Virus record (IMG/VR): IMGVR_UViG_3300042450_001700
Length of the DNA: 64,000 nucleotides
Source of the DNA: an uncultured virus (IMG/VR IMGVR_UViG_3300042450_001700)
Taxonomy: Duplodnaviria; Heunggongvirae; Uroviricota; Caudoviricetes
Strand: one strand, 5' to 3'
Shown here: positions 21,285 to 58,637 of the stretch, one piece after another
How the letters are laid out: every line of letters starts with the position of its first letter
How positions within the stretch are numbered: the first letter of the stretch is position 1
Translations under genes and position numbers: made by a program
Notes under the pieces: model-generated
Told to the model about the DNA's origin: nothing
What the model saw: the letters and a program-made list of their open reading frames with translations, nothing else
Databases searched by the model: none

Positions 21285-21334
21285 AAATAGTAGTTATTGA
21301 CTTGATTAGTGTAGAACCATCAACTACATTCATA
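21285..21334 (+). promoter_or_regulatory. Class I promoter with operator
   Basis: TTGATT(21302)-N17-TACATT(21325); operator GTAGAACCATCAACTAC at 21311-21327. Confidence 0.75.
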
Positions 21335-22015
21335 GGGGTAGGAGCAACCAACAGCAAGGAGCAACATCACTGAAGCAACCAAAACAAACAGAGAACGACC
21401 GCCACCCGAGCCAGACCCAAGGCTCCATCAAGACAGTTCGCTTGAGTCTTGAAAGGGTGAGGCGGCAGTAGCGCACCACTACAAATCACGGTGACGGTTC
21501 CAGCCGAGGAACAGAAAGTAACGGCAAAGCCTGAGAAACAACAGGCAACTCAGCTAGTCAAGCTGAAAGCGAAGCGTGCGCAATCCTTGGCACTTGAGGT
21601 GAAGAATCAAACGGCCACCGAGTAACCCATACAACCACAGCTCTTGGAATAGAGCCACGGAACTCATCGTACTCCTCTCCCTTGCAACATATCTAAGGGT
21701 TGCGCACACTTCGCTTCCAGTCCGACTAGCTACACAGAAACCGCAGAGACATCAGGGCAACCCTTGCAGGGTTGTAAACCTGTGACAGGTCACGGACCCG
21801 GCAAGAGTCCACTCAAGGCATTGAGGACCACACAGGCGACTGCGCCTGATGTACTGACTGCGGCGAGGTAGTTGGATAACGACCTGTGACAGGGTGCTAG
21901 TAGAGATTCACTCATTGGCTTGCCGCCAGACTGAGGCCCGAGCTAGATCACACCCCGAGCTTTTCCTGTCCTATACCGGCAGAACAGCCCCGCCTAGCGC
22001 GGGGCTTTCTGCTTT
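21335..22015 (+). ncRNA. Large structured ncRNA candidate A (~680 nt)
   Basis: No ORF >=60 aa in any frame; bounded by promoter and terminator; long helix 21552-21590/21694-21731; 5'/3' end pairing. Confidence 0.7.
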
Positions 22016-22017
22016 TT
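21979..22017 (+). terminator. Intrinsic terminator (possibly bidirectional)
   Basis: AGCCCCGC-CTAGC-GCGGGGCT hairpin followed by TTCTGCTTTTT. Confidence 0.8.
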
Positions 22018-25304: not shown

Positions 25305-25607
25305 TCAGCGAACGTGCTTGATGATCGCTCGGCGGGCTGCGGCGACTGTTGTGTAGTCCCGCTCGGTATCGTCAGGGAACTGAACCCGGACCATCTTGGT
25401 GCCGGGGTTCATCATGGAGCGCATCATCTCAGCGTCGGCTCCGAAGCGGATGACGTTCAAGTCCCACACCATGTAGTTGTCGAATGCTGGTCCGTAGGCG
25501 GTGAAAAGGCAGGCGGCGATTCCGTCGCGGTTGGTGATTCCTTCGCCGTCGGAGAAGCGAATCTGGAAGCCGGTTGCTGATGTTGCGAAGGTGTCGGTGT
25601 TGCTCAT
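25305..25607 (-). CDS. Hypothetical protein
   Basis: AGGAG SD; ~130-nt leader from the class II promoter at 25747-25768. Confidence 0.65.
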   Translation of the reverse strand: MSNTDTFATSATGFQIRFSDGEGITNRDGIAACLFTAYGPAFDNYMVWDLNVIRFGADAEMMRSMMNPGTKMVRVQFPDDTERDYTTVAAARRAIIKHVR

Positions 25608-25889
25608 GGTGCTTCTCCTAGATCGTTGTGTTGGGTTGGGAGCCTCGGTGTCTCCCGTGGGGGTGTCTCATCCTCCCCTGCGATGGCCTCGGATTTGTTA
25701 CAAGCTTTGACTCCGGTGCCGATCAACTGCTCGCTTGTGTAGATAACCATACAGCATGTCTGTGACAGTGAGTGACCAAAACGGAACATTTCTTCAAATT
25801 CTTTTCCAAACCCCAAACCCGACCCCGCCGATGAGCGCCCAACAGCGGGTTCCACGACCCGAGTCCATCACGCAAGGTAGACTCCGCCG

Positions 25890-26729
25890 ATGAGCAAACT
25901 TGTAGGGCTATCCCCATCCAGTGTTCAGCTATGGGAACAATGCCCACGCAAGTTCAAGGAAGAAAAGATGATGGGCCGATCAGGTGGCACAGGTGAAGCC
26001 GCGCTACTCGGCACGTTCGTCCATCTCGCACTCGAACATCTCATGCAACTACCAACCGAAGAACGAGTCATCGAAACAGCCCGCATGATCGCGCGTTCCT
26101 CGTGGGAAGAATTTGCTGCATCACGAGAATGGATCGGATGGGTTTCCGAAACAGGGTTTGATGATGAGCAAGCGTTTCGTCGTCGGGGCTGGGCAAGCAT
26201 CTGCGGCTATTTCCAAATGGAGAATCCGCAACAGGTTGAGGTTGTTGCAACCGAGCGTTTCATTTCGGCAACTCTTGAAGGTGTTCCTGTCAGGGGGATT
26301 GTTGACAGGCTTGATCGTGATGTGTTCGGCAATGTTGTGATCGTTGATTACAAGACAGGCAAGGTTCCATCCCCGTGGTTCCGCGCACCGAAGATGCAAC
26401 AACTCAACATCTATGCGGCGCTCGTTGAAGAGGTTGACGGGGTGCGACCTGATGAGGGCCGGTTGTTGTTCACTTCGTTCTCGGAGACTATTGCTACGGA
26501 TGTGACTGCGGAGTCTGTGTGGTCTGCGGTTGAGGTGTTGAAGAATGCGTGGGCGGCGATTGACCGGGCGGCGAACGATGATGTGTTCCCTGCGAAGGTT
26601 GGACCGTTGTGTGGTTGGTGTCCGTTTGTTGGTGAGTGTGTTGATGGGTTGGCTGAGGTGAAGTCTCGGCGGTCTGCGGGGAAGTTGAAGAAGACTGCTC
26701 CGGCTTGGGAGTTAGCGGCGGGCGAGTGA
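25890..26729 (+). CDS. PD-(D/E)XK RecB/Cas4-like exonuclease
   Basis: LSPSS...CP, GTFVH, RGIVDRLD, IVDYKTG, QLNIY and CGWCPF...C motifs; leaderless TAGACT-N6-ATG. Confidence 0.9.
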   Translation: MSKLVGLSPSSVQLWEQCPRKFKEEKMMGRSGGTGEAALLGTFVHLALEHLMQLPTEERVIETARMIARSSWEEFAASREWIGWVSETGFDDEQAFRRRGWASICGYFQMENPQQVEVVATERFISATLEGVPVRGIVDRLDRDVFGNVVIVDYKTGKVPSPWFRAPKMQQLNIYAALVEEVDGVRPDEGRLLFTSFSETIATDVTAESVWSAVEVLKNAWAAIDRAANDDVFPAKVGPLCGWCPFVGECVDGLAEVKSRRSAGKLKKTAPAWELAAGE

Positions 26730-26734
26730 CCCTG

Positions 26735-26800
26735 AAAAGGAATATCAAACAATCCGCTTTATTGAATTGACATGTGTAGTCGATGGGACTATCTTGATGG
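26735..26800 (+). promoter_or_regulatory. Class I promoter with operator
   Basis: TTGACA(26767)-N17-TATCTT(26790). Confidence 0.8.
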
Positions 26801-27197
26801 GGGTAAGGCAATACATCCGAAACGAACCGGCGCAACCGGGGGTCAAGGCGGGGGGACAACCGTAGCAAAAGGGTTCCAACAAGCACCAAGGTCAACGGCC
26901 CGCTAGTGGACATCAGACACTCAGCAGGGATACGGCAACGCATCCCCAACGCAAGCCAGCACGCATTAGCGGGAACACGAGTCTTGATGGCAGAAGCAAC
27001 GCACGAGCAATCTTGCATCGTTGAGAAACGAACAGACAAGAGGTTCAATCGTGACGTAAGAGCTACCGAAAGTAGTTCTGAATGTGAGGCGTGCCTGAGT
27101 TCGTGGATTGCGCATCTAGTAGCAAAAGCGCAGTAAGGGGTTTGGTGAATCAAACTTGTTGGAACCGGATTACGGTCCCCCCGCCCTTTTCGGTTTT
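26801..27197 (+). ncRNA. Structured ncRNA candidate B (~395 nt)
   Basis: Perfect long-range stems 26847-26857/27175-27185 and 26872-26883/27155-27166; many GNRA-type hairpins; U-rich 3' end. Confidence 0.75.
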
Positions 27198-27412
27198 TAC
27201 ACCGTCATCCGACGGGACTCCACCCGCACGCCCTGTTGCTCTGCGAAGACGCGTGCTTCACGCAGCGTGTAGAACACTGATTCTTCTCCGGCGGCAGTCA
27301 CGACGAACATCACTTTGGACCTAGCTACGCCACGCTCAAACGCCGCAGCCTGTAACTGGGTAGGCGCTGCCGTGGCTGTTGTACGTTTGGCTTTGCCGCA
27401 TCCGCATCCCAT
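27197..27412 (-). CDS. Small MGCGC-type protein
   Basis: MGCGCGKAKR...; ATG overlaps the upstream stop. Confidence 0.65.
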   Translation of the reverse strand: MGCGCGKAKRTTATAAPTQLQAAAFERGVARSKVMFVVTAAGEESVFYTLREARVFAEQQGVRVESRRMTV

Positions 27413-27648
27413 TAGGCGGGAACCTCGTCTGGTTCGGATCGTCCTTCGATGATCCAGCCCGGACCCTTCTGCCGTTGTGCGTACCAGCGGGCTTCGCGTA
27501 GTAGGTAGAACCGTACTGGTTCTAGTCCTGTGTGTTCTGGTGGGATTGCGTAGAACCAGACATGGGTTGGTTGGCCGGTGGTGGTTGGCGCTGATCTTGC
27601 TCCGCTGACTGGTGGGAGCCGTTTGTTCTTTCCGCAGTTGCAGGCCAT
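27412..27648 (-). CDS. Small MACNC-type protein
   Basis: MACNCGKNKR...FYLLREAR; paralog of the adjacent gene (FYTLREAR). Confidence 0.65.
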   Translation of the reverse strand: MACNCGKNKRLPPVSGARSAPTTTGQPTHVWFYAIPPEHTGLEPVRFYLLREARWYAQRQKGPGWIIEGRSEPDEVPA

Positions 27649-27807
27649 TGGGTGATGGTAGTTGGTGTCGGGTGTTGGGGGATAGCGTTGTCGGGTTTTG
27701 GGGGTCGAAAAGAAATCTGAAGAAATATCCTATTTGGACTTGCGGGCTGTAGTCGTATCGACTATCTTGATGGGGGTAAGGCAATTCACAACAAAGGAGC
27801 AAGGCAC

Positions 27808-28038
27808 ATGGGAATCGAAATCGAAGTACGGAACGGAATGGTCATCGAAGTTGATGAAGACTTCAACACAGAGTCCAATGACATAACCGTATGGGTGCTG
27901 GAAGTCGAAGTATTCGACCCTCAAGCGTCACCATGCTTTTCAAGCATCACCGAATACGGTGTCTTTGAGACATCCGCTGAGGCTGAGGCTGACGCACCTG
28001 AAGATGCGAAGCTTTACGAGGCGGAGGTGACAGCGTAA
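27808..28038 (+). CDS. Acidic hypothetical protein
   Basis: Class I promoter at 27740-27768, AAGGAG SD; paralog at 48690. Confidence 0.7.
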   Translation: MGIEIEVRNGMVIEVDEDFNTESNDITVWVLEVEVFDPQASPCFSSITEYGVFETSAEAEADAPEDAKLYEAEVTA

Positions 28039-28343
28039 TGGCAAAACACGCGGCACTCCCGATGAAGCCACTGTGGGACATCGCTCGCAGCATGAGTGAT
28101 GACCCGATGTTCAACCAGCGTGACTTCGCCCGAGCAGTCAACCATTCCACACGGGCCGTGACCCGTTGGATCACGGCAGGCGAAACCCTTTCGTGGGTGT
28201 CGGCAGACGAGGCGGCTATCGCACTCGGTTTGCATCCGATCCTTGTTTGGGGCGAAGCATGGTTGAACGTACGTGGCGAGTTGACTGATCTGGAAGCCGA
28301 AGTGATTGGCGATCTGGAAACGGAAGCACTCACCGATCTATAA
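28038..28343 (+). CDS. HTH-like DNA-binding protein
   Basis: NQRDFARAVNHSTRAVTRW...ADEAAIALGLHP..VWG pattern. Confidence 0.6.
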   Translation: MAKHAALPMKPLWDIARSMSDDPMFNQRDFARAVNHSTRAVTRWITAGETLSWVSADEAAIALGLHPILVWGEAWLNVRGELTDLEAEVIGDLETEALTDL

Positions 28344-28440
28344 ACAATCTGAGTTATAGGTGGTGTGGCGCTCAATAGTGTCACACCACCTAGATACACT
28401 TATCAAACAAGCAAGTCACAACTACCAAGGAGCGAGAGCA

Positions 28441-28671
28441 ATGGCAAAGAAGAAGGATTACCCGGCGATCAGCAAAGAGCAGAGGATCGAAGTCCTCTCG
28501 GTGTACCTCACCAAGATTGAATCAGGTCTTTCCGATCTGATCGCCAAGCGTGACAAGCTTCAAGACACCCCCGAGTCGGAATGGGCGCAACGCAACGTGC
28601 GAAACGCGACAGCACACATCGAAGTGACTCGCAACGAGCTTCACGCTCTCCTCGCAGAGGTGGCAGTCTGA
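28441..28671 (+). CDS. Hypothetical coiled-coil protein
   Basis: Class II promoter at 28379-28400, AAGGAG SD. Confidence 0.65.
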   Translation: MAKKKDYPAISKEQRIEVLSVYLTKIESGLSDLIAKRDKLQDTPESEWAQRNVRNATAHIEVTRNELHALLAEVAV

Positions 28672-29461: not shown

Positions 29462-29632
29462 CCCCAAACCCAAACCCCCCCGAACAAACCCCACCCCCAA
29501 AACACAGGTCAGGAGTTTCAACCCACCACCTGTAGAAACATCGACTACAACAACATTTCGGATATACACAAACCGAACCACCCGGACTCAAAAAGAACCC
29601 ACAAAAAAAGATTGGGAGTTTCAAGTTGTCAA

Positions 29633-29822
29633 CTTTTCCAAAAAGTTATCCACAGGTTTTTCCACAGAGTTATCCACAGAACACCTGTTCGACGAACATT
29701 TGTTCGGAAAAGTTGTCCACAGGTTGTCCACAGGTTGTCCACAGCTTTATCCACAGAAAAGTTTTCCACAGGTTTTCCACAGGCAAAAGTTATCCACAGT
29801 TTGTCCACAGGTTTATCCCCAA
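29633..29822 (+). repeat. DnaA-box array with LexA-like boxes (left)
   Basis: TTATCCACA x4, TTGTCCACA x4 and TTTTCCACA x3, co-oriented at ~11-12 bp spacing; GAAC-N4-GTTC at 29679 and 29694. Confidence 0.85.
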
Positions 29823-29825
29823 CCT

Positions 29826-30602
29826 TGTTCGCTGTTCTCGGCTCGTGGTCGGCGCTCGTGGTCGGCTCTCGCTCTCTTGTTCTCGGCTCGTTCTCGGCTC
29901 TCGCTCTCGCTCTCATGTGGCTCTCATGTTGTGGCAATAGGTGAGACAGTAGGCGCGCGCTATCGGCTCTCTCTGTTCGCTCTCGTTCGTGTGGTCGGCG
30001 CGCTCTCGGCTCTCTCGTTCGTGCCGCTCGTGTTCGCTCTCGGCTCGTGGTCGGCTCTCTCTGTTCGTGGTTCGTTCGTGCCGCTCTCGCTCGTTCTCTT
30101 GGCTCGTGTTCGTGTGCGGCTCGTGGTCGGCTCTCTCTGTTCGTGGTTCGTTCGTGCCGCTCTCGCTCGTTCTCTTGGCTCGTGTTCGTGTGCCGCTCGT
30201 GGTCGGCTCTCGTGTTCGTGTGGCTCGTTCGCTCGTGTGGCTCGTGTGCCGCTCGTGTGGCTCTCTCTCGGCTCTCGTGTGCCGCTCTCGTGGCCCAGCA
30301 GCGCGTGCCGCTCTCGGCTCGTGGTTCGTGTGGCTCTCGTTCGTGTTCGTTCGCTCTCGTGGCTCTCGTGGCGCTCTCGTTCGTGGTCGGCGCTCATGGC
30401 TCTCTCGTGTGTTCTCTGTTCGCTCTCGGCTCTCGCTCTCGTGTGGCGCTCTCTCGCTCGTTCTCGTGGCTCGTGGTCGGCTCTCGTTGGCTCTCGCTCG
30501 TGGTGCCGCTCTCGTTCTCTCTCGTGGCTCGTGGCTCTCGCTCATGGCACTCACCCAGCAGCTCGTGCCGCTCGTGCCGCTCGTGCCGCTCGTTCTCGTT
30601 CT
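29826..30602. repeat. Adenine-free low-complexity tract 1
   Basis: Mosaic of GCTCTC/GCTCGTG/GTTC/GCC/GGTCG units. Confidence 0.9.
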
Positions 30603-30605
30603 CCC

Positions 30606-30646
30606 CAAAAACTAGAACGAGAGCCGACCGTTTTGGTCGGCTCTCG
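30606..30646 (-). terminator. Cassette terminator
   Basis: GAGAGCCGACC-AAAAC-GGTCGGCTCTC hairpin then GTTCTAGTTTTT; repeated at ~31641-31682, 32686-32728 and 33646-33684. Confidence 0.75.
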
Positions 30647-30657
30647 TTCTCGGCTCG

Positions 30658-30984
30658 TCAGTCCTTGAATATTGCTTTTAGCTCGGCAGTGATTGCCCGC
30701 TGAAGCGCTGGAATTTCGCGCACAAGAGCGTTGTACGTTTTCGGCTCAACCGCCAAAGTGTGAGTGCCAACACCTTGAGCGTTGAGAGTGCGAACCCACT
30801 TAGGCGTTCCGGCGTATCCTTCGTCAGTTGTGATGACTTTCGTGCCGTTCTCGTTGTAACCAACGAACACCCGGCGAGGATTTCCATGTACGTTGTTTGT
30901 TGTTGTGTAGTAGCCGATCGAACGGATGTTGAGCAGTAGCTCGTGTGCGGTCATTTGGTTGGCGAGTACTTCGTGGATTGCCAT
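30658..30984 (-). CDS. Cassette gene 1, hypothetical (108 aa)
   Basis: Normal-complexity ORF between the conserved leader and terminator. Confidence 0.75.
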   Translation of the reverse strand: MAIHEVLANQMTAHELLLNIRSIGYYTTTNNVHGNPRRVFVGYNENGTKVITTDEGYAGTPKWVRTLNAQGVGTHTLAVEPKTYNALVREIPALQRAITAELKAIFKD

Positions 30985-31172
30985 GATTTTTCTCTCATTC
31001 CCGAGCGGCTCGTGCCGCTCGTGTTGTTGGTGTGACTACATTCAACCAAAGATTGGAACAGAACGCAATAGCAAAACACCAGATTCTTTTTCTGACAGCG
31101 ATTTAGCCGCTAGAACTAGGGGGTTTTGCCCCAAAAGAAATATTTTGGAATCGCTCCAAAACGGTCGTTTTG
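30985..31172 (-). promoter_or_regulatory. Conserved ~185-bp cassette upstream block (4 copies)
   Basis: Homologous to 31961-32146, 33022-33208 and 33999-34180; includes TTGCGT, GTAGTCACACCAACAACACGAG and a hairpin before GAGAG. Confidence 0.75.
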
Positions 31173-31635
31173 GCGCTCTCGGCTCATGTTGCTCTCGGCT
31201 CTCGTGGTGCCGCTCATGTTGCTCTCGTGCCGCTCTCGCTCTCGGCTCTCGCTTGCCGCTCATGGCGCTCTCGTGTGGTCGGCGCTCGTGGCTCTCGGCT
31301 CGTGGTCGGCGCTCTCACCCAGCAGCGCTCTCGCGCGCTCTCGTGGCTCGTGGTCGGCGCTCGGCTCATGGTCGGCTCGTGCCGCTCTCACCCAGCGCTC
31401 GTGTGGCGCTCGTGTGGTGCCGCTCTCGGCTCGTTCTCTCTCGTGGTCGGCTCTCGTGCCGCTCGTGCCGCTCGTGGCGCTCTCGTGGCTCGTGGTGCCG
31501 CTCTCTCGGCTCTCGGCTCGTGTGCTTGCTCTCGCTCTCTCTCGTGCCGCTCTCGGCTCGTGTGGTGCCGCTCGTGGCTCATGCCGCTCTCGGCTCTCGC
31601 CCAGTCTTGTGTGGCGCTCGTGGCGCTCTCTCGTT
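31173..31635. repeat. Adenine-free low-complexity tract 2
   Basis: Same unit vocabulary as tract 1. Confidence 0.9.
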
Positions 31636-31693
31636 GGATCCAAAAACTAGAACGAGAGCCGACCGTTTTGGTCGGCTCTCGCTCTCGCTCGTT

Positions 31694-31960
31694 CTAGCCT
31701 AGTTGATCCTCTCGTTTTGGCAGTAGTTGGAGTTCTTCCCGATCTCCGGCGAGAGCGTCACAACATTCGCACAAGTTGCGGCTGAATGATCCCGAGAACC
31801 AATCCGAAGCCGGAACCAGATCAAAATCCTTGCTTAGTTCTTCGATCCCTTTTTGGCATGCAATCGAATCGGCTTCGCTCATTCCCGAGTCATCGCCATC
31901 AGCGATCATTTGGAGGCAGTTGAGGCAAACTCGGATGGTGATGATGTCTGACAGCTTCAT
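31694..31960 (-). CDS. Cassette gene 2, acidic Zn-binding-like (88 aa)
   Basis: VCLNC...FS...CECC...GDR motif. Confidence 0.75.
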   Translation of the reverse strand: MKLSDIITIRVCLNCLQMIADGDDSGMSEADSIACQKGIEELSKDFDLVPASDWFSGSFSRNLCECCDALAGDREELQLLPKREDQLG

Positions 31961-32146
31961 TTTTTTCTCTCATTCCCGAGCGGCTCGTGCCGCTCGTGTT
32001 GTTGGTGTGACTACATCAAAGCAAACATTTTGACTATACGCAATAGCAAAATGCGAGATTCTTTTTCTGACCGGGGTTTTGCCGCTAGTTCTAGGGGTTT
32101 TCACGCCAAAAGAAATATTTTGGAATACGTCCAAAACGGACGTTTT

Positions 32147-32685
32147 GCCGCTCTCGGCTCTCTTGTGCCGCTCGTGTTCTCGTGGTTCTCGCTCTCTCGT
32201 TCTCTCGGCTCGTGTGGCGCTCGTGTGGTCGGCTCATGGCGCTCTCGCTCGTGGTTCGTCCTAGTGCCGCTCTCGTGGCTCGTGGCGCTCGTGTGTGGCT
32301 CTCTCGTGGTTCTCGTGGCGCTCTCGTGTGGCGCTCGTTCTCATGCCGCTCTCGTGGCTCTCGTGTGGCTCGTGGTTCGTGCCGCTCGTGGTTCTCGGCT
32401 CTCACCCAGCAGCGCGCTCGTGTGGCTCGTGTGGTGCCGCTCGTGTTCGTTCGTGGTTCGTGGTCGGCGCTCGTGTTCTCTGTTCGCTCTCGTGGCTCGT
32501 GTGGCGCTCTCGTGGCGCTCATGGTGCCGCTCTCGTTCGTGGTCGGCTCATGTGGCTCTCTCGTGGCTCGTGGTTGCTCGTTCGTGGTTGCTCTCGGCTC
32601 ATGGCGCTCTCGTGTTCGTTCGTGCCGCTCTCGGCTCTCTCGTGGCTCTCACCCAGCGCTCGTGGTGCCGCTCTCGGCTCGTGCC
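32147..32685. repeat. Adenine-free low-complexity tract 3
   Basis: Same unit vocabulary. Confidence 0.9.
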
Positions 32686-32736
32686 AAAAACGGCAACAAG
32701 CGCCGACCGTTTTGGTCGGCGCTCGTTGCTCGTTTT

Positions 32737-33021
32737 CTAGAACGCTTGGAACAGAATCCCGTCGCAAAATTCGACTGCAAAAGTCATATCGTTGAGAGCG
32801 TCAAGCGAGTCGAAATTTTCGCCGTAGTTCTCGTTGATCTCTTCCAAGTCTGCCGCAAACATCCATTCTTGATCGAATGCGATTGGATCGAATTCAACCC
32901 CTTGGCCTTCTTCTTCTGCCGCTTCGATAAGCTCAAACAGTGCGTAGGATGCGTTGATCGGCCAGTTGCAAAGTGTGCGCATTGTTTGGGCAAACGTGCA
33001 GGCTGTCAGTAGTTCGTACAT
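32737..33021 (-). CDS. Cassette gene 3, very acidic protein (94 aa)
   Basis: SYALFELIE...EFDPIAFDQEW...LDALNDMT; D/E-rich. Confidence 0.75.
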   Translation of the reverse strand: MYELLTACTFAQTMRTLCNWPINASYALFELIEAAEEEGQGVEFDPIAFDQEWMFAADLEEINENYGENFDSLDALNDMTFAVEFCDGILFQAF

Positions 33022-33208
33022 TTTCTTTTCTCATTTCCCGAGCAGTTGGTGCCGCTCGTGTTGTTGGTGTGACTACATCAAAGCAAAGATTTGAAAGATA
33101 CGCAATAGCAAAACACGAGATTCTTTTTTCGACCGGGGTTTTCGCCCTAGAACTAGCGGGTTTTGCACCAAAAGAAATATTTTGGAATCGCTCCAAAACG
33201 GCAGTTTT

Positions 33209-33645
33209 CGCGCTCTCGCTCGTTCTCTCGTGTTGCTCGTTCTCGGCTCTCGGCTCATGGTTCTCTCGGCTCTCGTGTGGTGCCGCTCTCGCTCTCGGCT
33301 CTCGCTCTCGGCTCGTGTGCCGCTCTCGCCCAGCAGCGCGCTCGTGTGCCGCTCTCGTGTGGTTCGTGGTCGGCTCTCGGCTCTCGCTCATGGTTGCTCT
33401 CGTGTGCCGCTCGTGTTCGTGGCAGATACCCAGCGGCGCGTGCCGCTCTCGTGGCTCGTGTTTGCTCTCGGCTCATGCCGCTCTCGTGGTTGCTCTCTCG
33501 TGGCTCTCTCGGCTCGTGGTTGCTCTCTCGCTCGTGCCGCTCATGGTCGGCTCGTGGTGCCGCTCTCGGCTCTCGTGGTCGGCTCTCGTGCCGCTCTCGT
33601 TCTCGTGGCTCTCCCAGCCGCTCGTGGCGCTCGTGTGGCGCTCGC
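33209..33645. repeat. Adenine-free low-complexity tract 4
   Basis: Same unit vocabulary. Confidence 0.9.
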
Positions 33646-33698
33646 AAAAACGAGAATGAGCGCCGACCTTTTTGGTCGGCGCTCGTGGCTCGTGTGGT

Positions 33699-33998
33699 TC
33701 AGTCGTATTCAACCTCACCCCATTGATTTGTTCGTGAATGACAGAACTCTTCAACATAGTAAGAGTTGAGATCAACGTATTTTGGTGCCGCTTCAGCCGC
33801 TTCAGCCGCTTCAGCGATTTCCATGACTAGCGCCCTAGTCGAAACTGACGGAACCGATTTGCCGCCAGCGTTTTTGGCGATTTCAGTCCACTCAGAATCG
33901 GTCAAGTACTCGGGGTTTTTGCCGATAGTGGCGATTTCTGTCGCCATCTTCTTAGCAAGCTTTGCCCGATTTGCTAGGTGTGCCGGATGTGCTTTCAT
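33699..33998 (-). CDS. Cassette gene 4, HPxHL-family copy 3
   Basis: MKAHPAHLANR...W..IA..AG...PS..T. Confidence 0.75.
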   Translation of the reverse strand: MKAHPAHLANRAKLAKKMATEIATIGKNPEYLTDSEWTEIAKNAGGKSVPSVSTRALVMEIAEAAEAAEAAPKYVDLNSYYVEEFCHSRTNQWGEVEYD

Positions 33999-34180
33999 TC
34001 TGCTCTCTCTTCCCGAGCCGCTCGGCTCGTGTTGTTGGTGTGACTACATCAAAGCAAAGATTCCACACATAAGCAATAGCAAAATGCGAGATTCTTTTTG
34101 GAACAGCGGTTTTACCCCTAGAACTAGGGGGTTTTGCACCAAAAGAAATCTTTTGGAATCAGCCCAAAACGGTCGTTTTG

Positions 34181-34528
34181 GCTCTCGGCTCGCTCTCTCA
34201 TGGTCGGCTCTCGGCTCGTGTTCTCATGGCTCTCTCATGGCGCTCTCATGGTTCTCTCTCTCTTGTGCCGCTCTCGCTCTCTCATGCCGCTCTCGTGGTC
34301 GGCTCGTGGCTCGTGGCGCTCTCTCTTGCTCTCGGCTCTCGTGTGGCGCTCTCGTGGCTCGTGTGGTTGCTCTCTGTTCTCGTGGCGCTCTCTGTTCTCT
34401 CTCGGCTCGTGTTCTCTCTCTCATGGCGCGCTCGTTCTCGTGGTCGGCTCGTGGTCGGCTCGTGGTTGCTCTCGCTCTCTCGCTCTCGGCTCTCTCATGG
34501 TCGGCTCGTGTGGCGCTCTCGGCTCATG
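34181..34528. repeat. Adenine-free low-complexity tract 5
   Basis: Same unit vocabulary. Confidence 0.9.
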
Positions 34529-34614
34529 CAAAACATCTGCCGAACTCGTGACAGAAAACCGCCACTAGCGCGCGCGGTCGATTCCAAAACGACCAACACG
34601 AAAACGCCCGCGAG

Positions 34615-34846
34615 TTATCCCCAACCACACCAACCAGACGAGCCAAAAACAGCCAAAAGTTTTCCACAGGTTTTCCACAGGTTTTCCACAACTTTTTCCA
34701 CAGAACACCCGTTCCCCAAACGAATGTTCGATCAAAGTTATCCACAAGTTATCCACAGGTTTATCCACAGAACACCTGTTCGATCCGGTTATCCCCAGAG
34801 TTATCCACAGGTTTATCCACAGGTTTATCCACAGCCTGTGGATAAC
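34615..34846 (+). repeat. DnaA-box array with LexA-like boxes (right)
   Basis: TTATCCACA x6 plus one inverted copy (34837), TTTTCCACA x4; GAAC-N4-GTTC at 34703 and 34770. Confidence 0.85.
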
Positions 34847-35068
34847 CCAGCCCAGCCCAGCCCAGCCCCAAGCGGGCGGCGGCGGGCGGGCGGCAGCGGC
34901 GGCCCAGCCAGCGCGAGTTTTCCGGGCGGCGGGCGGCGGCGGCCAGCGCGAATTTCCGGGCGGGTGGGCGGCCCAGTCCGGCCCAGTCCGGCCCCGGATA
35001 AACGGCGGCCCAGCCAGCGCGAGTTTTCTAGGGGGCGGCGGGGCGGCGGGCCAGCGCGAATTTTCTAA
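34847..35068. repeat. GC-rich repeat block
   Basis: CCCAG tandem repeats, GGGC/GGC runs and four CCAGCGCGA(G/A)TTT units. Confidence 0.8.
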
Positions 35069-44263: not shown

Positions 44264-45007
44264 AGCCATCTTGCTGACTAACCGAGAAGGCAATACGTCC
44301 TTCTGTCGGCATCGGTTGATACCGCCAAATTTTTGCACCATTGGGGGTGCCTGCAACCGCCCTTGCAGGTGGGTTCCTATCTTCTGTCACCCGAGGTCTA
44401 CAACCCTTGGAACACCGGAAGATTCGTTCAGCGGCGGGACTTTGTTTCAGGCGATATTCCCTGTGCTGCTTTTTGCCTGTACTGCTTGTTGATCGCAGAA
44501 CCGTTGAGTTAGCAGGAAGAGCGGCGGGAGAGATGCACCAACAACGCGCCCATCTTCGCTTCACATCAGAAGCTCGTTACCTAGCCGGGAGGGGAGAGAT
44601 GCACCAACAACGCTCCACCGGGTAGGGAATGGCTAACTGGCGGGAAGTATATCTTCCCGCTAACTCAACGGTCCTACGAATCAAGTTCTTAGAAGATGCT
44701 CTTGGACCGGCTACTTGCTTTCGTTCTTACTACTCCACGGATTGTGCGCACGCACCGCTTCACCTCAGAACTAGTTGCTTTCACCGTTCTCCGCATTCAC
44801 TCGCGCTATGTCAACATCCATCCACCACCTTCATAAGCACATCTCTGTGTGCCGTAGGGCGCTTCACTTGGCGATCAGCCCGGTACTTCTGCGGTTCCAA
44901 GTTCATCATCTAAGAACTTGATTCCTGTACTTGAGAGTCTTTGGTGTGCGGACCCTAGCCGCCATGCTCCCCGGTCGTTCCGGTTCTTTAGGTTGTATTG
45001 CCTTACC
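44229..45007 (-). ncRNA. Large structured ncRNA candidate C (~780 nt)
   Basis: Promoter TTGACA-N17-TATCTT at 45014-45042; 5'/3' stem 44995-45004/44287-44296; perfect 16-bp stem 44678-44693/44909-44924; stem 44498-44520/44652-44674. Confidence 0.75.
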
Positions 45008-45077
45008 CCCATAAAGATAGTCGATGCGACTACACATGTCAAGTCAATAATCAAGATTGTTTGATATTTCTTTTCGG

Positions 45078-47736: not shown

Positions 47737-48008
47737 TGTGATTGCCTCCGTGTTAGTTGTTGCTGTTGGTTGTTGTACGACTCACTATATAGATCGGTGT
47801 GGACGCTAAATGACTTTCCACTAAACTTTTCTTTGGATTCGTTTACAAACCTAAACCCTCAACCACTACTTCACCCCCGCACCACCAACCCCGACGCTGG
47901 GCAAACCCTCAACCTCAACCACAGGTTTACAGTTAGACACTCGGAACCGGAACGCCGCCCAGTACGTCGAAGGTTTGCGTCCACACTGCTCTATAGACTG
48001 TTGAACAT

Positions 48009-48245
48009 ATGACTACTGAACAAGAAGTGAGCAGCAACTACACGCCTGCACAGCAATGGCTTGCAGCACTAGACCTTATGGTCAAGGCCACCGAGGAACT
48101 GGGCGTGAACCATGCCGAGTATCCGCGGGCGGCGGTTGAGTGTGGGCCGGAGATGGTTCGTGAGATTGACCGTGTGATTCGGATTGCTCAACGGTTGACT
48201 GATGGTTGTGATGTTGAGTTTCAGCGGAAGCGTTTGAGCGTCTAA
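48009..48245 (+). CDS. Hypothetical protein
   Basis: CGTCCA-N10-TAGACT promoter just upstream. Confidence 0.6.
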   Translation: MTTEQEVSSNYTPAQQWLAALDLMVKATEELGVNHAEYPRAAVECGPEMVREIDRVIRIAQRLTDGCDVEFQRKRLSV

Positions 48246-52640: not shown

Positions 52641-53312
52641 TTGGAGGTTGTTGTGTCGAATGTTGTTCCGCAGTTGCAGGGGTTGTGTGTTCCTGTTGAG
52701 GGGTTGAGAACGATGACTGGTAATCCGCGTCGGGGTGATGTGGATGCGGTGATGCGTTCGTTGGATGCTTTTGGTCAGCGGAAACCGATTGTTGCTCGTG
52801 AGAGTACGGGCGAGGTGATCGCTGGGAACCATACGTTTATGGCGGCGGTGAAGTTGGGTTGGTCTGAGATTGCGGTTGTGTGGGTTGATGATGATGATGC
52901 GACGGCTAAGGCGTTTGCGTTGGCTGATAATCGGACTGCCGAGTTGGGTGGTTATGATGATGAGTTGTTGGCGGGGATGATCGCTGAGGTGATGTCTGCT
53001 GACTTGGGGTTGTTGGCTGCGGCTTCGTATACGGCTGACGATTTGGATGCGTTGTTGGCGGATACTTTGCCTGTTGAGGAGTTGCCGGTTCCTGAGACTC
53101 GTAAGGCCCCGGTGAAGTTGGCTGAACGGTTTGTTGGTTTGCCTGTGAGTGTGTTGAACAGTCGTGAGGGTTGGTGGCAGGATCGGAAACGGGCGTGGAC
53201 TGATCTTGGGATTGAGTCTGAGTTGGGTCGTGATGGTAAACCGTTGACTTGGAATGTTGCTGTGCCGCAGGGTCACGGCCATCAGGCGACGGATATGGTG
53301 CAAAATGGTTGA
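52641..53312 (+). CDS. ParB/Srx domain protein carrying the N-terminal segment of a DNA methyltransferase
   Basis: NPRRG...IAGNHT...LADNRTAE; ends with LAERF..P.SVL..R.GWWQDRKRAW..LGI.SELGR. Confidence 0.8.
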   Translation: MEVVVSNVVPQLQGLCVPVEGLRTMTGNPRRGDVDAVMRSLDAFGQRKPIVARESTGEVIAGNHTFMAAVKLGWSEIAVVWVDDDDATAKAFALADNRTAELGGYDDELLAGMIAEVMSADLGLLAAASYTADDLDALLADTLPVEELPVPETRKAPVKLAERFVGLPVSVLNSREGWWQDRKRAWTDLGIESELGRDGKPLTWNVAVPQGHGHQATDMVQNG

Positions 53313-54876
53313 ACCTGTTGTTGAGGTTGAGGGTTACGGTGAGGGTTCAACTTCTTTGTTTGACCCGGTTTTGTGTGAACTGGTTTATAGGTGGTTTTGT
53401 CCACCGGGCGGTCAGGTGTTGGACCCGTTCGCCGGGGGTTCTGTTCGTGGGGTTGTTGCGTCGAAGTTGGGTCGGGAGTACACGGGGATTGACGTTCGCC
53501 CGGAGCAGGTTGAGGCGAACAGGTTGCAGGGTGAAAGGCTTTGCCGCGGGTTGTCGTTTGTGCCGGATGTCCCTGAGGATCACATGCCTGAGCTGACACC
53601 GGTTGAAACTCATGGTGACATCTGGTTGAAACGTGAGGATCATTATGTTTTTGGTGGGGTGAGGGGTGCGAAAGTTCGGACTTGTATGCTTCTGGTTGAG
53701 CGTGCGCGTGAACAAGGGGTTGGGGTTGTCACGGCTGGGTCACGGCAGTCGCCGCAGGTGAACTTTGTGGCTCAGATTGCAGCGGCGTTGGGTGTGAAGT
53801 GTCGGGCGCATGTGCCTTCTGGCGATTTGACACCGGAGCTTCTTGCGGCTCGTGGCGCTGGTTGCGAGTTGATTCAACATCAGGCGGGGTATAACACGGT
53901 GATCGTTGCGCGTGCGCGTGAGGATGCGTTGCAGTCTGGTTGGGTTGAGATTCCGTATGGGATGGAAGCGCCGGAGGCGGTTGAGTTTACGAAACCGCAG
54001 GTTGCGAATATCCCTGACGGGGTTCAGCGGATTGTGAACAGTGTCGGGTCAGGAATGACTCTTGCGGGCATCCTGTGGGGTCTAGTTGAGTCGGGGAGGG
54101 ATATTCCGGTAGTTGGTGTGTGTGTCGGTCATCCGCCGTTAGAACGCCTTGAGAGGCACGCACCACCGGGTTGGCAGGAAATGGTGACGATTGTGGACCA
54201 CCCGTCCGATTACCACGACGAGGCAGCGGTGACTGTGTTCCGTGGGGTGCAGTTGGACCCGTGGTACGAGGCGAAGTGCATTCCGACTTTGGAACCGGGT
54301 GACTTGTTATGGGTGAGCGCTATCCGACCGTCAGTTGTTCTCGCCGCAGCACCGTTACCCCAGTGGGTTGAGGGTGACGCTTCAGAGGTGGGCGAGTTGT
54401 GTCAAGGTTTAGAAGCCGATTTGTGGTTTTCTTGTCCGCCTTATGGTGATCTTGAAGTGTACTCGGATGATCCGCGTGATCTTTCAACGATGGATTACTC
54501 AACTTTTATTGAGTCATTCCGACAGATTGTTGATACGTCAACAAAACTGTTGAAGGACGACAGGTTCGCTGTTGTTGTTGTCGGTGACTTCCGTGGCCCC
54601 GACGGGAACTACCGCAACTTTGTTTCAGATACGATCAGCGCTTTCCAAGACGCAGGACTCAGCTTGTATAACGAGGCGATCCTTGTAACGAATCTTGCTT
54701 CACTGATTCTGCGTGTCGGTAAACAGTTTGATGTGTCCCGCAAGATGGGCAAGTCGCATCAGAATGTTCTTGTGTTCTTGAAGGGTGACGCACGCGCAGC
54801 GACACGCGCTTGCGGTCCGGTGCAGGCCGGTGATCTGACGGCTGAGGCCACGGAAAGCGTCCAACCGGAATCGTAG
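53305..54876 (+). CDS. DNA methyltransferase with inserted PLP-dependent (fold type II) domain
   Basis: TSLFDPVLCE...VLDPFAGGSVRG; insert LTPVE...LKRED...GAKVR...VGSGMTLAGI...DPWYEAK; then FSCPPY...K.HQNVLVF.KG. Confidence 0.85.
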   Translation: MVEPVVEVEGYGEGSTSLFDPVLCELVYRWFCPPGGQVLDPFAGGSVRGVVASKLGREYTGIDVRPEQVEANRLQGERLCRGLSFVPDVPEDHMPELTPVETHGDIWLKREDHYVFGGVRGAKVRTCMLLVERAREQGVGVVTAGSRQSPQVNFVAQIAAALGVKCRAHVPSGDLTPELLAARGAGCELIQHQAGYNTVIVARAREDALQSGWVEIPYGMEAPEAVEFTKPQVANIPDGVQRIVNSVGSGMTLAGILWGLVESGRDIPVVGVCVGHPPLERLERHAPPGWQEMVTIVDHPSDYHDEAAVTVFRGVQLDPWYEAKCIPTLEPGDLLWVSAIRPSVVLAAAPLPQWVEGDASEVGELCQGLEADLWFSCPPYGDLEVYSDDPRDLSTMDYSTFIESFRQIVDTSTKLLKDDRFAVVVVGDFRGPDGNYRNFVSDTISAFQDAGLSLYNEAILVTNLASLILRVGKQFDVSRKMGKSHQNVLVFLKGDARAATRACGPVQAGDLTAEATESVQPES

Positions 54877-58115: not shown

Positions 58116-58637
58116 CTAGAGGATGATGTTGACGAGGTTGCCGTTGATTGTTTGCACACCCGGTGTGAGCGTAGCCACATATGCTACCGCCTCGGGTTGC
58201 ACAAAGACGAGTTGCGCGCAGATCGTGTCGCAATCCGCTTGCGACCATCCATTCCAAAGAATGCAATCTCTGGTTGCTTGCTCAGGGAACGTCAAGTACC
58301 CCAAGTAGAAACCGACCAGCAAGTCTACGGGTTTGATCGGAGCGAGGATGTCGGGGTCCAACCCGAGTTCCCTTATCGCTTCTCGTTGGGCCAAGTACTC
58401 AGCCGATGGCAGTAACAGCGGATTAGGGTTGTTGACATAAAATTCCAGTGATGCAGCCGAATCAGTTGGTTGGTCTTCAGGCTGAACTGATCTTTTCAGT
58501 GATGTTGCAATCCTGTCCGCAAAGAAAGCAACAACACCGGGAATGGTGTCTGGCAGCGTTTCCCATGTTTGCGTTGTAGGTACCGTGTCAGCGTCAGCAT
58601 TTTCGCTTGTCATTGGTTCATCTCCGTTATCACTCAT
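58116..58637 (-). CDS. Hypothetical tail-region protein
   Basis: ATGA-coupled within the tail operon. Confidence 0.6.
   Translation of the reverse strand: MSDNGDEPMTSENADADTVPTTQTWETLPDTIPGVVAFFADRIATSLKRSVQPEDQPTDSAASLEFYVNNPNPLLLPSAEYLAQREAIRELGLDPDILAPIKPVDLLVGFYLGYLTFPEQATRDCILWNGWSQADCDTICAQLVFVQPEAVAYVATLTPGVQTINGNLVNIIL

Follow-up and report, generated by a model that had tools for sequence, protein, structure and literature searches.

Positions 26801-27197 on the plus strand of the window (the whole 64-kb stretch of phage DNA that was analysed here) appear to constitute a stand-alone gene for an RNA of about 395 nt, provided that the transcript starts and ends where promoter and T-run would place it. 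This RNA, in the following called RNA B, carries a structure signal, is conserved, does not encode a protein and has its fold preferentially on the plus strand. It represents a family that is apparently undescribed, the 'B-type' modular lake-phage RNA; the kind to which it belongs, the large structured phage RNAs, is known, and within this kind RNA B is closest to GOLLD and ROOL, being a member of neither.

Fold and anatomy of RNA B

How are the two ends of RNA B held together? The preliminary description had pointed to two long-range helices, and both are perfect complements exactly where it had placed them, GGCGGGGGGAC (26847-26857) pairing with GTCCCCCCGCC (27175-27185) and GGTTCCAACAAG (26872-26883) with CTTGTTGGAACC (27155-27166). 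No other perfect Watson-Crick helix of at least 8 bp exists in 26801-27197; the two measure 12 bp and 11 bp. Among 200 dinucleotide shuffles a helix of at least 11 bp was found in a single one, and two such helices in none. The entire region folds at -144.5 kcal/mol as compared to -121.1 ± 5.05 kcal/mol for shuffled sequences (z = -4.63), none of 100 shuffles being as stable, and an independent repeat of this calculation yielded z = -4.05 for the plus strand and -3.40 for the reverse complement. As a control, z-values of -0.73 and +0.03 were obtained for two equally long coding regions. Helices and fold energy thus bear out the original proposal of a compact structured RNA closed by long-range helices.

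The loops had been characterized as GNRA loops in large number, which holds in part. In the minimum-energy fold, on which the loop count is based, two of the six loops are GNRA tetraloops (GCAA and GAGA) and two more are pentaloops that contain a GNRA sequence (CGCAA and CGAAA), that is four of six at most. The hairpin GGGATACG-GCAA-CGCATCCC (26927-26946) does have the GCAA cap ascribed to it, but its stem contains one A-C mismatch (26932/26941), which is an A-U pair in the relative L169 and an A-C mismatch in three of the four sequences that have this hairpin. Similarly, the second hairpin singled out earlier, AGAGCTAC/CGAAA/GTAGTTCT (27059-27079), contains GAAA, but within a five-base loop and not as a clean tetraloop. 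The antisense fold has no GNRA sequence among its five tetraloops.

Relatives of RNA B were searched for with sequence patterns in IMG/VR and JGI metagenomes, revealing four further distinct full-length versions (L172, L169, L165 and L179), one fragment identical to RNA B of the window and one 5' fragment. Together with the window there are five distinct full-length sequences, all of them in contigs of uncultured lake phages; as the patterns were derived from the RNA itself, this sample leans towards conserved forms. With wider patterns 8 of 21 viral loci and 7 of 12 metagenome loci were chance matches that were set apart by reading, the viral ones being coding DNA, and a pattern made of 14 bases of the leader was discarded as too unspecific (at least 119 loci). 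The parts of the gene, as far as they can be delineated from the consensus fold and from the sequence around it, are the following:

26739..26754, plus strand: upstream element GGAATATCAAACAATC of the promoter cassette, with recurring matches in the window
26767..26795, plus strand: sigma-70-like promoter, TTGACA, 17-nt spacer and TATCTT, by match to the consensus
26801..26821, plus strand: predicted transcript start, placed by the distance to the -10 box, and 5' tail GGGGTAAGGCAAT...
26815-26821 with 27188-27194, plus strand: outermost helix P0 of the consensus fold
26827..26839, plus strand: 5' hairpin CCGG-CGCAA-CCGG with 4 pairs, invariant in all five sequences
26845-26856 (P1), 26860-26865 (P1b), 26872-26883 (P2) and 26884-26893 (P3), plus strand: 5' strands of the closing stem in the consensus fold
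26899..26973, plus strand: arm 1, helix P4 (26899-26908 with 26964-26973) around the GCAA-capped hairpin 26927-26946, in the consensus fold
26976..27105, plus strand: arm 2, helices P6, P6b and P7 around the hairpins P7a (26999-27057) and P5 (27059-27079), in the consensus fold
27107..27134, plus strand: arm 3, hairpin P8 with the 14-nt loop ATCTAGTAGCAAAA, stem and loop identical in all five sequences
27138..27197, plus strand: 3' strands of P3, P2, P1b, P1 and P0 in the consensus fold, followed by the T-run (27193-27197) as predicted transcript end

This arrangement could be described as 'rod and head', whereby a composite closing stem would join both ends of the RNA and carry a three-armed head. 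The closing stem, composed of P0, P1, P1b, P2 and P3, comprises about 47 bp in total. Within P2 the pair 26878/27160 is A-U in two sequences and G-C in three, and P3 switches between G-U, G-C and A-U among the sequences. The 5' hairpin is part of a module, GAACCGG..CCGGGG..CA.GGCGG, that is common to a larger RNA encoded at 45005-44235 (all eight A-type sequences of it). In arm 1 of L179 the GCAA hairpin is swapped for a helix-closed domain that is about 86 nt longer. The tip of P7a in arm 2 is a 38-nt insert with a GAGA loop, flanked on both sides by the 5-nt direct repeat CAATC; it is missing in three of the five sequences, which have CACGA-GCAA-TCGTG instead. Inside this tip the pair T27013/A27039 is replaced by C/G in L172 and in one contig of an RNA library. 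The 14-nt loop of P8 contains the palindrome CTAG, and the 10-mer GTAGCAAAAG has exactly two copies in the 64-kb window, in P8 and at 26862, both within RNA B. Of the repeated words considered as candidate protein-binding sites only those containing CTAG are conspicuous, the remainder of the genome having few of them. A search for pseudoknots outside the dispensable 38-nt tip revealed no conserved complementarity of at least 5 nt between unpaired stretches.

Constraint on the fold and predicted transcription of the gene

The consensus fold of the five sequences consists of 107 pairs in 16 helices, and 98.1% of its cells are paired, as compared to 33-42% when the partners are slid by one to three columns. 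Its covariation score is 0.074 versus 0.057 for shuffles, 3 of 500 of which reach 0.074. Only three pairs are changed on both sides, a number reached by 105 of 500 shuffles, and one of the three (columns 23/486) is situated in the ambiguously aligned 3' tail. Covariation is thin because the five sequences are too close to each other. The type of change found in paired positions speaks to the strand. Variable paired columns number 19; Watson-Crick alternates with G-U in 12 of them and with A-C in one, and 7 show another non-standard mismatch; when the antisense strand is folded alone, 9 Watson-Crick/G-U switches are found versus 6 of the A-C type. G-U pairing is tolerated only in RNA of the given strand. 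The ratios of 12 to 1 in sense and 9 to 6 in antisense orientation therefore argue for an RNA of the plus strand and against a DNA palindrome. Moreover, all variation in length of RNA B is located at hairpin tips. Contigs of RNA libraries add 22 differences inside RNA B (19 substitutions and 3 indels), most of which, according to our own mapping onto the fold, keep pairs, keep the GNRA loop or lie in unpaired positions. Examples are 27013/27039, which are changed together, a G-U pair turned into G-C at 26966, the A-C mismatch turned into A-U at 26941, GCAA turned into GAAA and hence still GNRA at 26936, and changes in the bulge 27148-27154.

RNA B is 94.4-96.5% identical to its relatives at aligned positions, and the features that define it, the 5' hairpin module, the closing stem P1-P3 and the three-armed head with the invariant P8 loop, are present in all five full-length sequences. 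Over the 423 nt downstream of RNA B, the closest relative has 87.6% identity and the remaining three have 73.4-74.4%. Conservation above the flanks could reflect strong constraint or a recent exchange of the cassette. The relatives differ from each other by indels of 38 nt and 86 nt, and the RNA-library contig with the C/G pair at 27013/27039 is devoid of 16 nt at 27018, the known forms spanning about 360-450 nt. The long open frames of the window in this region, including a minus-strand frame of 219 codons, are broken in three of the five sequences. Given the length differences of 38 and 86 nt, no reading frame survives, indicating that RNA B is not coding. Beyond the lake-phage contigs, blastn of all three large RNAs of the window, which are introduced below, against 50,697 GenBank phage records gave no match, and a scan of 185,579 species genomes with the pattern of the 5' module found 14 loci, not one of which was family-like by profile.

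The promoter TTGACA-17-TATCTT agrees with the consensus at 10 of 12 positions and is the only promoter-like site in 25500-28500. A site of the type TTGAC...TACATT is found at equal distance in all four relatives, despite differing surrounding sequence. It seems to belong to a larger cassette, extending from about 60 nt upstream of the -35 box to about +17. The element GAAATATCAAACAATC in its upstream part has six matches in the window with up to three mismatches (5149, 12249, 26739, 45055, 46029 and 48249), with 0.42 expected, and the cassette with its upstream element precedes the larger RNA gene (45055-45070, minus strand) as well as protein-coding genes. Judged by this distribution, GAAATATCAAACAATC may mark a set of co-regulated transcription units composed of RNA genes and protein genes. 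The leader ATGGGGGTAAGGCAAT belongs in part to the promoter cassette as well, for it is found again at 27770, where a protein gene with a Shine-Dalgarno sequence follows, and on the minus strand at 44997.

Transcription of RNA B is predicted to start near 26801 and would end at the T-run 27193-27197, which lies immediately next to the stop codon (27197-27199) of the convergent gene on the minus strand. At the 3' end no compact local terminator hairpin is present, so termination would depend on the long-range stem. Relatives of RNA B are found in contigs of three RNA libraries from two studies, with a depth of up to 534 (in a contig of 523 nt). These contigs extend beyond the predicted start by 70-201 nt on its upstream side and contain flanking genes as well; with promoter DNA and neighbouring genes included, they are no proof of a discrete transcript.

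The phage and its further structured RNAs

The window encodes a major head protein, two portal-like proteins, the large subunit of terminase and tail proteins, indicating a tailed phage, and in addition a DnaB-like helicase, a replication initiator and methylases. With the head protein as query 858 GenBank phage records were matched at identities of at most 36%; grouped by the first word of the organism name, 496 of these belong to Mycobacterium, 198 to Gordonia and 115 to Microbacterium. The host of the phage is likely actinobacterial, because nearly all of the matches stem from phages of Actinomycetota. Seventeen DNA runs labelled as lake water contain 87-100% of the sampled words of the window.

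The gene for RNA B is situated between a nuclease gene and convergent small genes. The latter are two overlapping paralogous genes on the minus strand (27648-27197) for proteins of 71 and 78 aa that are 33% identical, both begin with M-x-C-x-C-G-K and carry an LREAR motif; a search against Pfam gave only matches to DUF7196 below threshold. This pair is kept beside RNA B in all four relatives, the upstream neighbour is not. No reverse transcriptase and no recognizable RNA-binding domain was found among 88 ORFs scanned against Pfam, nor in four further small ORFs scanned, nor in 25 entries compared with PHROGs.

Several other regions of the window caught our attention. A stretch of about 5 kb (29600-34900) is strongly skewed towards T over A and contains four to five tandem units, each about 1 kb long and built from the short words CTCG, GCTCG and GGTCGG. 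It is flanked on both sides (29634-29834 and 34638-34846) by arrays of GTTATCCACAG-type repeats, which we take to resemble DnaA boxes, and the ORFs called within it are devoid of a family match. Two intergenic regions, 47737-48081 and 58267-58633, fold beyond shuffles on the plus strand only, with z-values of -3.4 and -3.0 as compared to +0.1 and +0.2 on the minus strand; by these predicted folds they may be smaller structured RNAs or leaders. At 53254-54876 on the plus strand an ORF of 540 aa joins a fragment of an N6_N4_Mtase methylase (residues 46-88) to the pyridoxal-phosphate enzyme domain PALP (119-314), which is possibly an unusual fusion or an artefact of crude ORF calling.

Folding predictions suggest that RNA B is not the only large structured RNA of this phage and that the window carries at least three of them, RNA B and the two following:

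45005-44235, minus strand: larger structured RNA gene of about 770 nt, fold z -4.3
about 21335-22017, plus strand: candidate for a third RNA gene of about 680 nt, fold z -6.3, with no ORF of 60 aa or more

All three genes face the 3' end of a convergent operon. The larger RNA shares its promoter cassette and its 5' module with RNA B, and its gene is convergent with that for the terminase large subunit. Eight distinct versions of it were found that differ at fixed sites by whole helix-closed modules of 100-330 nt, and an insert of about 300 nt is bounded by a perfect inverted repeat of 16 bp. Its consensus fold contains 138 pairs, 16 of which show compensatory changes, some of them originating from swapped domains. 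Watson-Crick/G-U switches outnumber switches to A-C by 20 to 1 in the larger RNA, and by 17 to 10 in its antisense strand. Furthermore, a 222-nt module of the larger RNA is found again, 85% identical, in another phage (L205, IMG/VR contig 3300034051_000989), within a different structured RNA, about 1 kb long, that occupies the same site next to the terminase gene and has another 5' core; both RNAs also share a block of 56-59 nt and the terminator. Among 17 loci of terminase relatives, the larger RNA lies downstream in nine, the L205 form in one and protein genes in five, and two loci end at the gene. Repeats of the modules elsewhere in the 64-kb window were not found.

Is RNA B related to the larger RNA? 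In a profile search only the first 58 nt match, with an E-value of 2.6e-6 when the leader is included and of 0.02-0.75 without it, and the blocks of the RNA B core are not significant (E 0.3-1.4). As only these first 58 nt match, we claim a shared 5' module, homology not being proven; a distant paralogy of the two RNAs is possible. The third RNA is preceded by a promoter-like site, TTGACT..TACATT, at about 21299-21327 and ends in a canonical hairpin with T-run at about 21985-22017. Four of five related records contain homologues of it in blocks of 94-98% identity, with an insert between blocks. For pairing among the three RNAs the best signal was between the P8 loop and the third RNA (z -2.9), which is not convincing since it is driven by the CTAG palindrome.

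Known RNA families and possible roles of RNA B

With the covariance models of Rfam 15 (4227 families) the whole window yielded no match at gathering score, and nothing credible appeared around RNA B (26300-27700) at E<=10; a permissive search of the larger RNA, the third RNA and six related loci, including the variable modules, returned rows at chance level only. ARAGORN detected no tRNA and no tmRNA genes in the 64-kb window. A match to a known family, named in the preliminary description as an outcome that would speak against its proposal, is therefore absent, and RNA B is not GOLLD, ROOL, RNase P RNA, tmRNA or a catalogued ribozyme or intron. For GOLLD, the covariance model of its conserved 3' domain did not match at gathering score or at E<=10, and the position next to tRNA genes that is frequent in this family does not apply in 64 kb devoid of them. 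ROOL, presumably Rfam RF03087, did not match by its Rfam covariance model. Bacterial RNase P RNA and tmRNA resemble RNA B in length and in having their two ends paired, and the preliminary description, which noted the similar size, had found none of their signature motifs. RNA B is neither of them: the Rfam model of RNase P RNA with its P4 core did not match and no long-range pairing of the P4 type was seen in the sequence, and for tmRNA there is neither an Rfam nor an ARAGORN match nor a tRNA-like end. Group I and group II introns were likewise rejected, as their models did not match and the gene has its own promoter, lies intergenic between the nuclease gene and the convergent small genes and has no exons. 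In the literature on lake or actinobacterial phages no description of such an RNA was found.

What could RNA B be compared with? The pRNA of phage phi29 is structured, small to mid-size and transcribed from its own promoter, and it functions in trans in the form of an oligomeric ring. RNA B is like it in being a structured phage RNA with its own promoter, and the larger sister RNA adjoins the gene for the terminase large subunit. However, RNA B lies away from the packaging genes, the phage has a classical terminase and not a phi29-type motor, and there is no similarity to pRNA in sequence or by model. Only few classes of large structured phage RNAs are well described, among them GOLLD and ROOL, and their roles are unknown (PMC12286853). 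GOLLD is often found near tRNA islands in phages or prophages and many of its members exceed 800 nt (PMC12286853). RNA B resembles GOLLD in being phage-borne, large and ornate, in coming first from lake metagenomes and in having a conserved and a variable part (PMC12286853), but it differs by its length of about 395 nt and by a window without tRNA genes. ROOL, an example of which has 659 nt, is described with multiple pseudoknots (PMC12286853). RNA B shares with ROOL the occurrence in phages or prophages, a complex fold, the lack of a known protein partner and a function that is unknown (PMC12286853), and differs in being smaller, in having no tRNA island and in its rod-and-head fold, in which no pseudoknot was detected.

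On balance we lean towards the view that RNA B is a free-standing phage RNA of about 395 nt, belonging to an undescribed modular family, that acts in trans as scaffold or decoy. Briefly, host RNA polymerase would start at the sigma-70-like promoter and the transcript would fold into a rod, the closing stem of about 47 bp, and a head with arms mostly capped by GNRA-type loops, the U-run after the last strand of the closing stem ending transcription. The folded particle would then bind a host or phage factor in trans during infection. Fold and stability would come from the constant core, variable functions being tolerated or carried by the tips. In the larger RNA and at two tips of RNA B, helix-closed modules are swapped, added or lost between close phages, with the core staying near invariant.

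Alternatively, RNA B might assemble with itself. GOLLD, ROOL and OLE were found to be homo-oligomers by cryo-EM (PMC12286853), and RNA B could, in the manner of the nanocages of GOLLD and ROOL or of the dimer of OLE, form a protein-free homo-oligomer by loop-loop and A-minor contacts. It would be suited to do so as a large, ornate, GNRA-rich and phage-encoded RNA with no partner protein nearby and with an invariant 14-nt loop in P8 that holds the palindrome CTAG. A palindrome of 4 nt is, however, a weak contact, with about 395 nt RNA B is well below ROOL (659 nt) and many GOLLD members (>800 nt; PMC12286853), and it has no sequence or model match to GOLLD, ROOL or OLE, so that we consider homo-oligomerization unlikely. 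It could also be imagined that the element acts in cis, as a stop or insulator at the convergent gene pair 27648-27197 or as antisense read-through controlling this pair, in which case the structure would chiefly serve termination and stability. Each of the three large RNA genes aims at the 3' end of a convergent operon, the T-run of RNA B directly abuts the stop codon of the convergent gene, and it is this neighbour that is kept in all four relatives and not the upstream one. A terminator or insulator would not need an RNA of 395 nt with 94-96.5% identity and invariant loops, though, and RNA B does not overlap the convergent coding sequence, which makes a role in cis quite improbable in our judgement.

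A more sceptical reading would see no functional RNA at all and take the region for nested inverted repeats at the level of DNA, the remains of small palindromic mobile elements or of recombination; the modules would be insertions bounded by terminal inverted repeats, and recent mobility would explain the high identity. Modules are bounded by long perfect inverted repeats, such as the 16 bp around the insert of about 300 nt in the larger RNA, the 222-nt module has a counterpart of 85% identity in another phage, within a different RNA gene, RNA B is conserved above its flanks, and the direct repeat CAATC on both sides of the 38-nt tip would fit as well. Yet such elements would not account for the asymmetry of the strands (12 versus 1 in RNA B and 20 versus 1 in the larger RNA, as compared to 9 versus 6 and 17 versus 10 for the antisense strands), for GNRA-type loops confined to the sense strand, or for a promoter and T-run that are kept; neither is there a repeat of the modules elsewhere in the 64-kb window or, by the 5'-module pattern, a copy in 185,579 species genomes. 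We hold this origin to be very unlikely. Least of all would we expect a ribozyme, be it self-cleaving, self-processing or acting on another RNA, a possibility raised in the preliminary description. The features that recall one are of a general nature, a compact multi-helix fold, GNRA loops and invariant unpaired stretches, and they are opposed by the lack of a match to any Rfam ribozyme or intron model even at E<=10, of exons and of a conserved pseudoknot among the unpaired stretches. More generally, the setting of RNA B with convergent genes, own promoter and no exons holds no pointer to catalysis or splicing.

A bolder proposal, which we put forward tentatively and regard as doubtful, is that lake phages carry a kit of at least three large RNAs, at least the larger ones combining constant cores with exchangeable helix-closed modules and RNA B being the smallest one seen, and that these RNAs assemble alone or together into RNA particles active during infection. 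If this were true, they would constitute a new class of ornate phage RNA that evolves by module exchange. A further unrelated family would in any case widen the small set of large structured phage RNAs. With forms of about 360-450 nt RNA B is small enough for probing and cryo-EM, its natural indel variants mark dispensable parts, and sister RNAs are available in the same genome, making it a tractable case for asking what phages use such RNAs for and whether formation of multimers is general. The swapping of modules between close phages suggests fast evolution at the periphery of these RNAs, which would fit a role in the conflict between host and phage.
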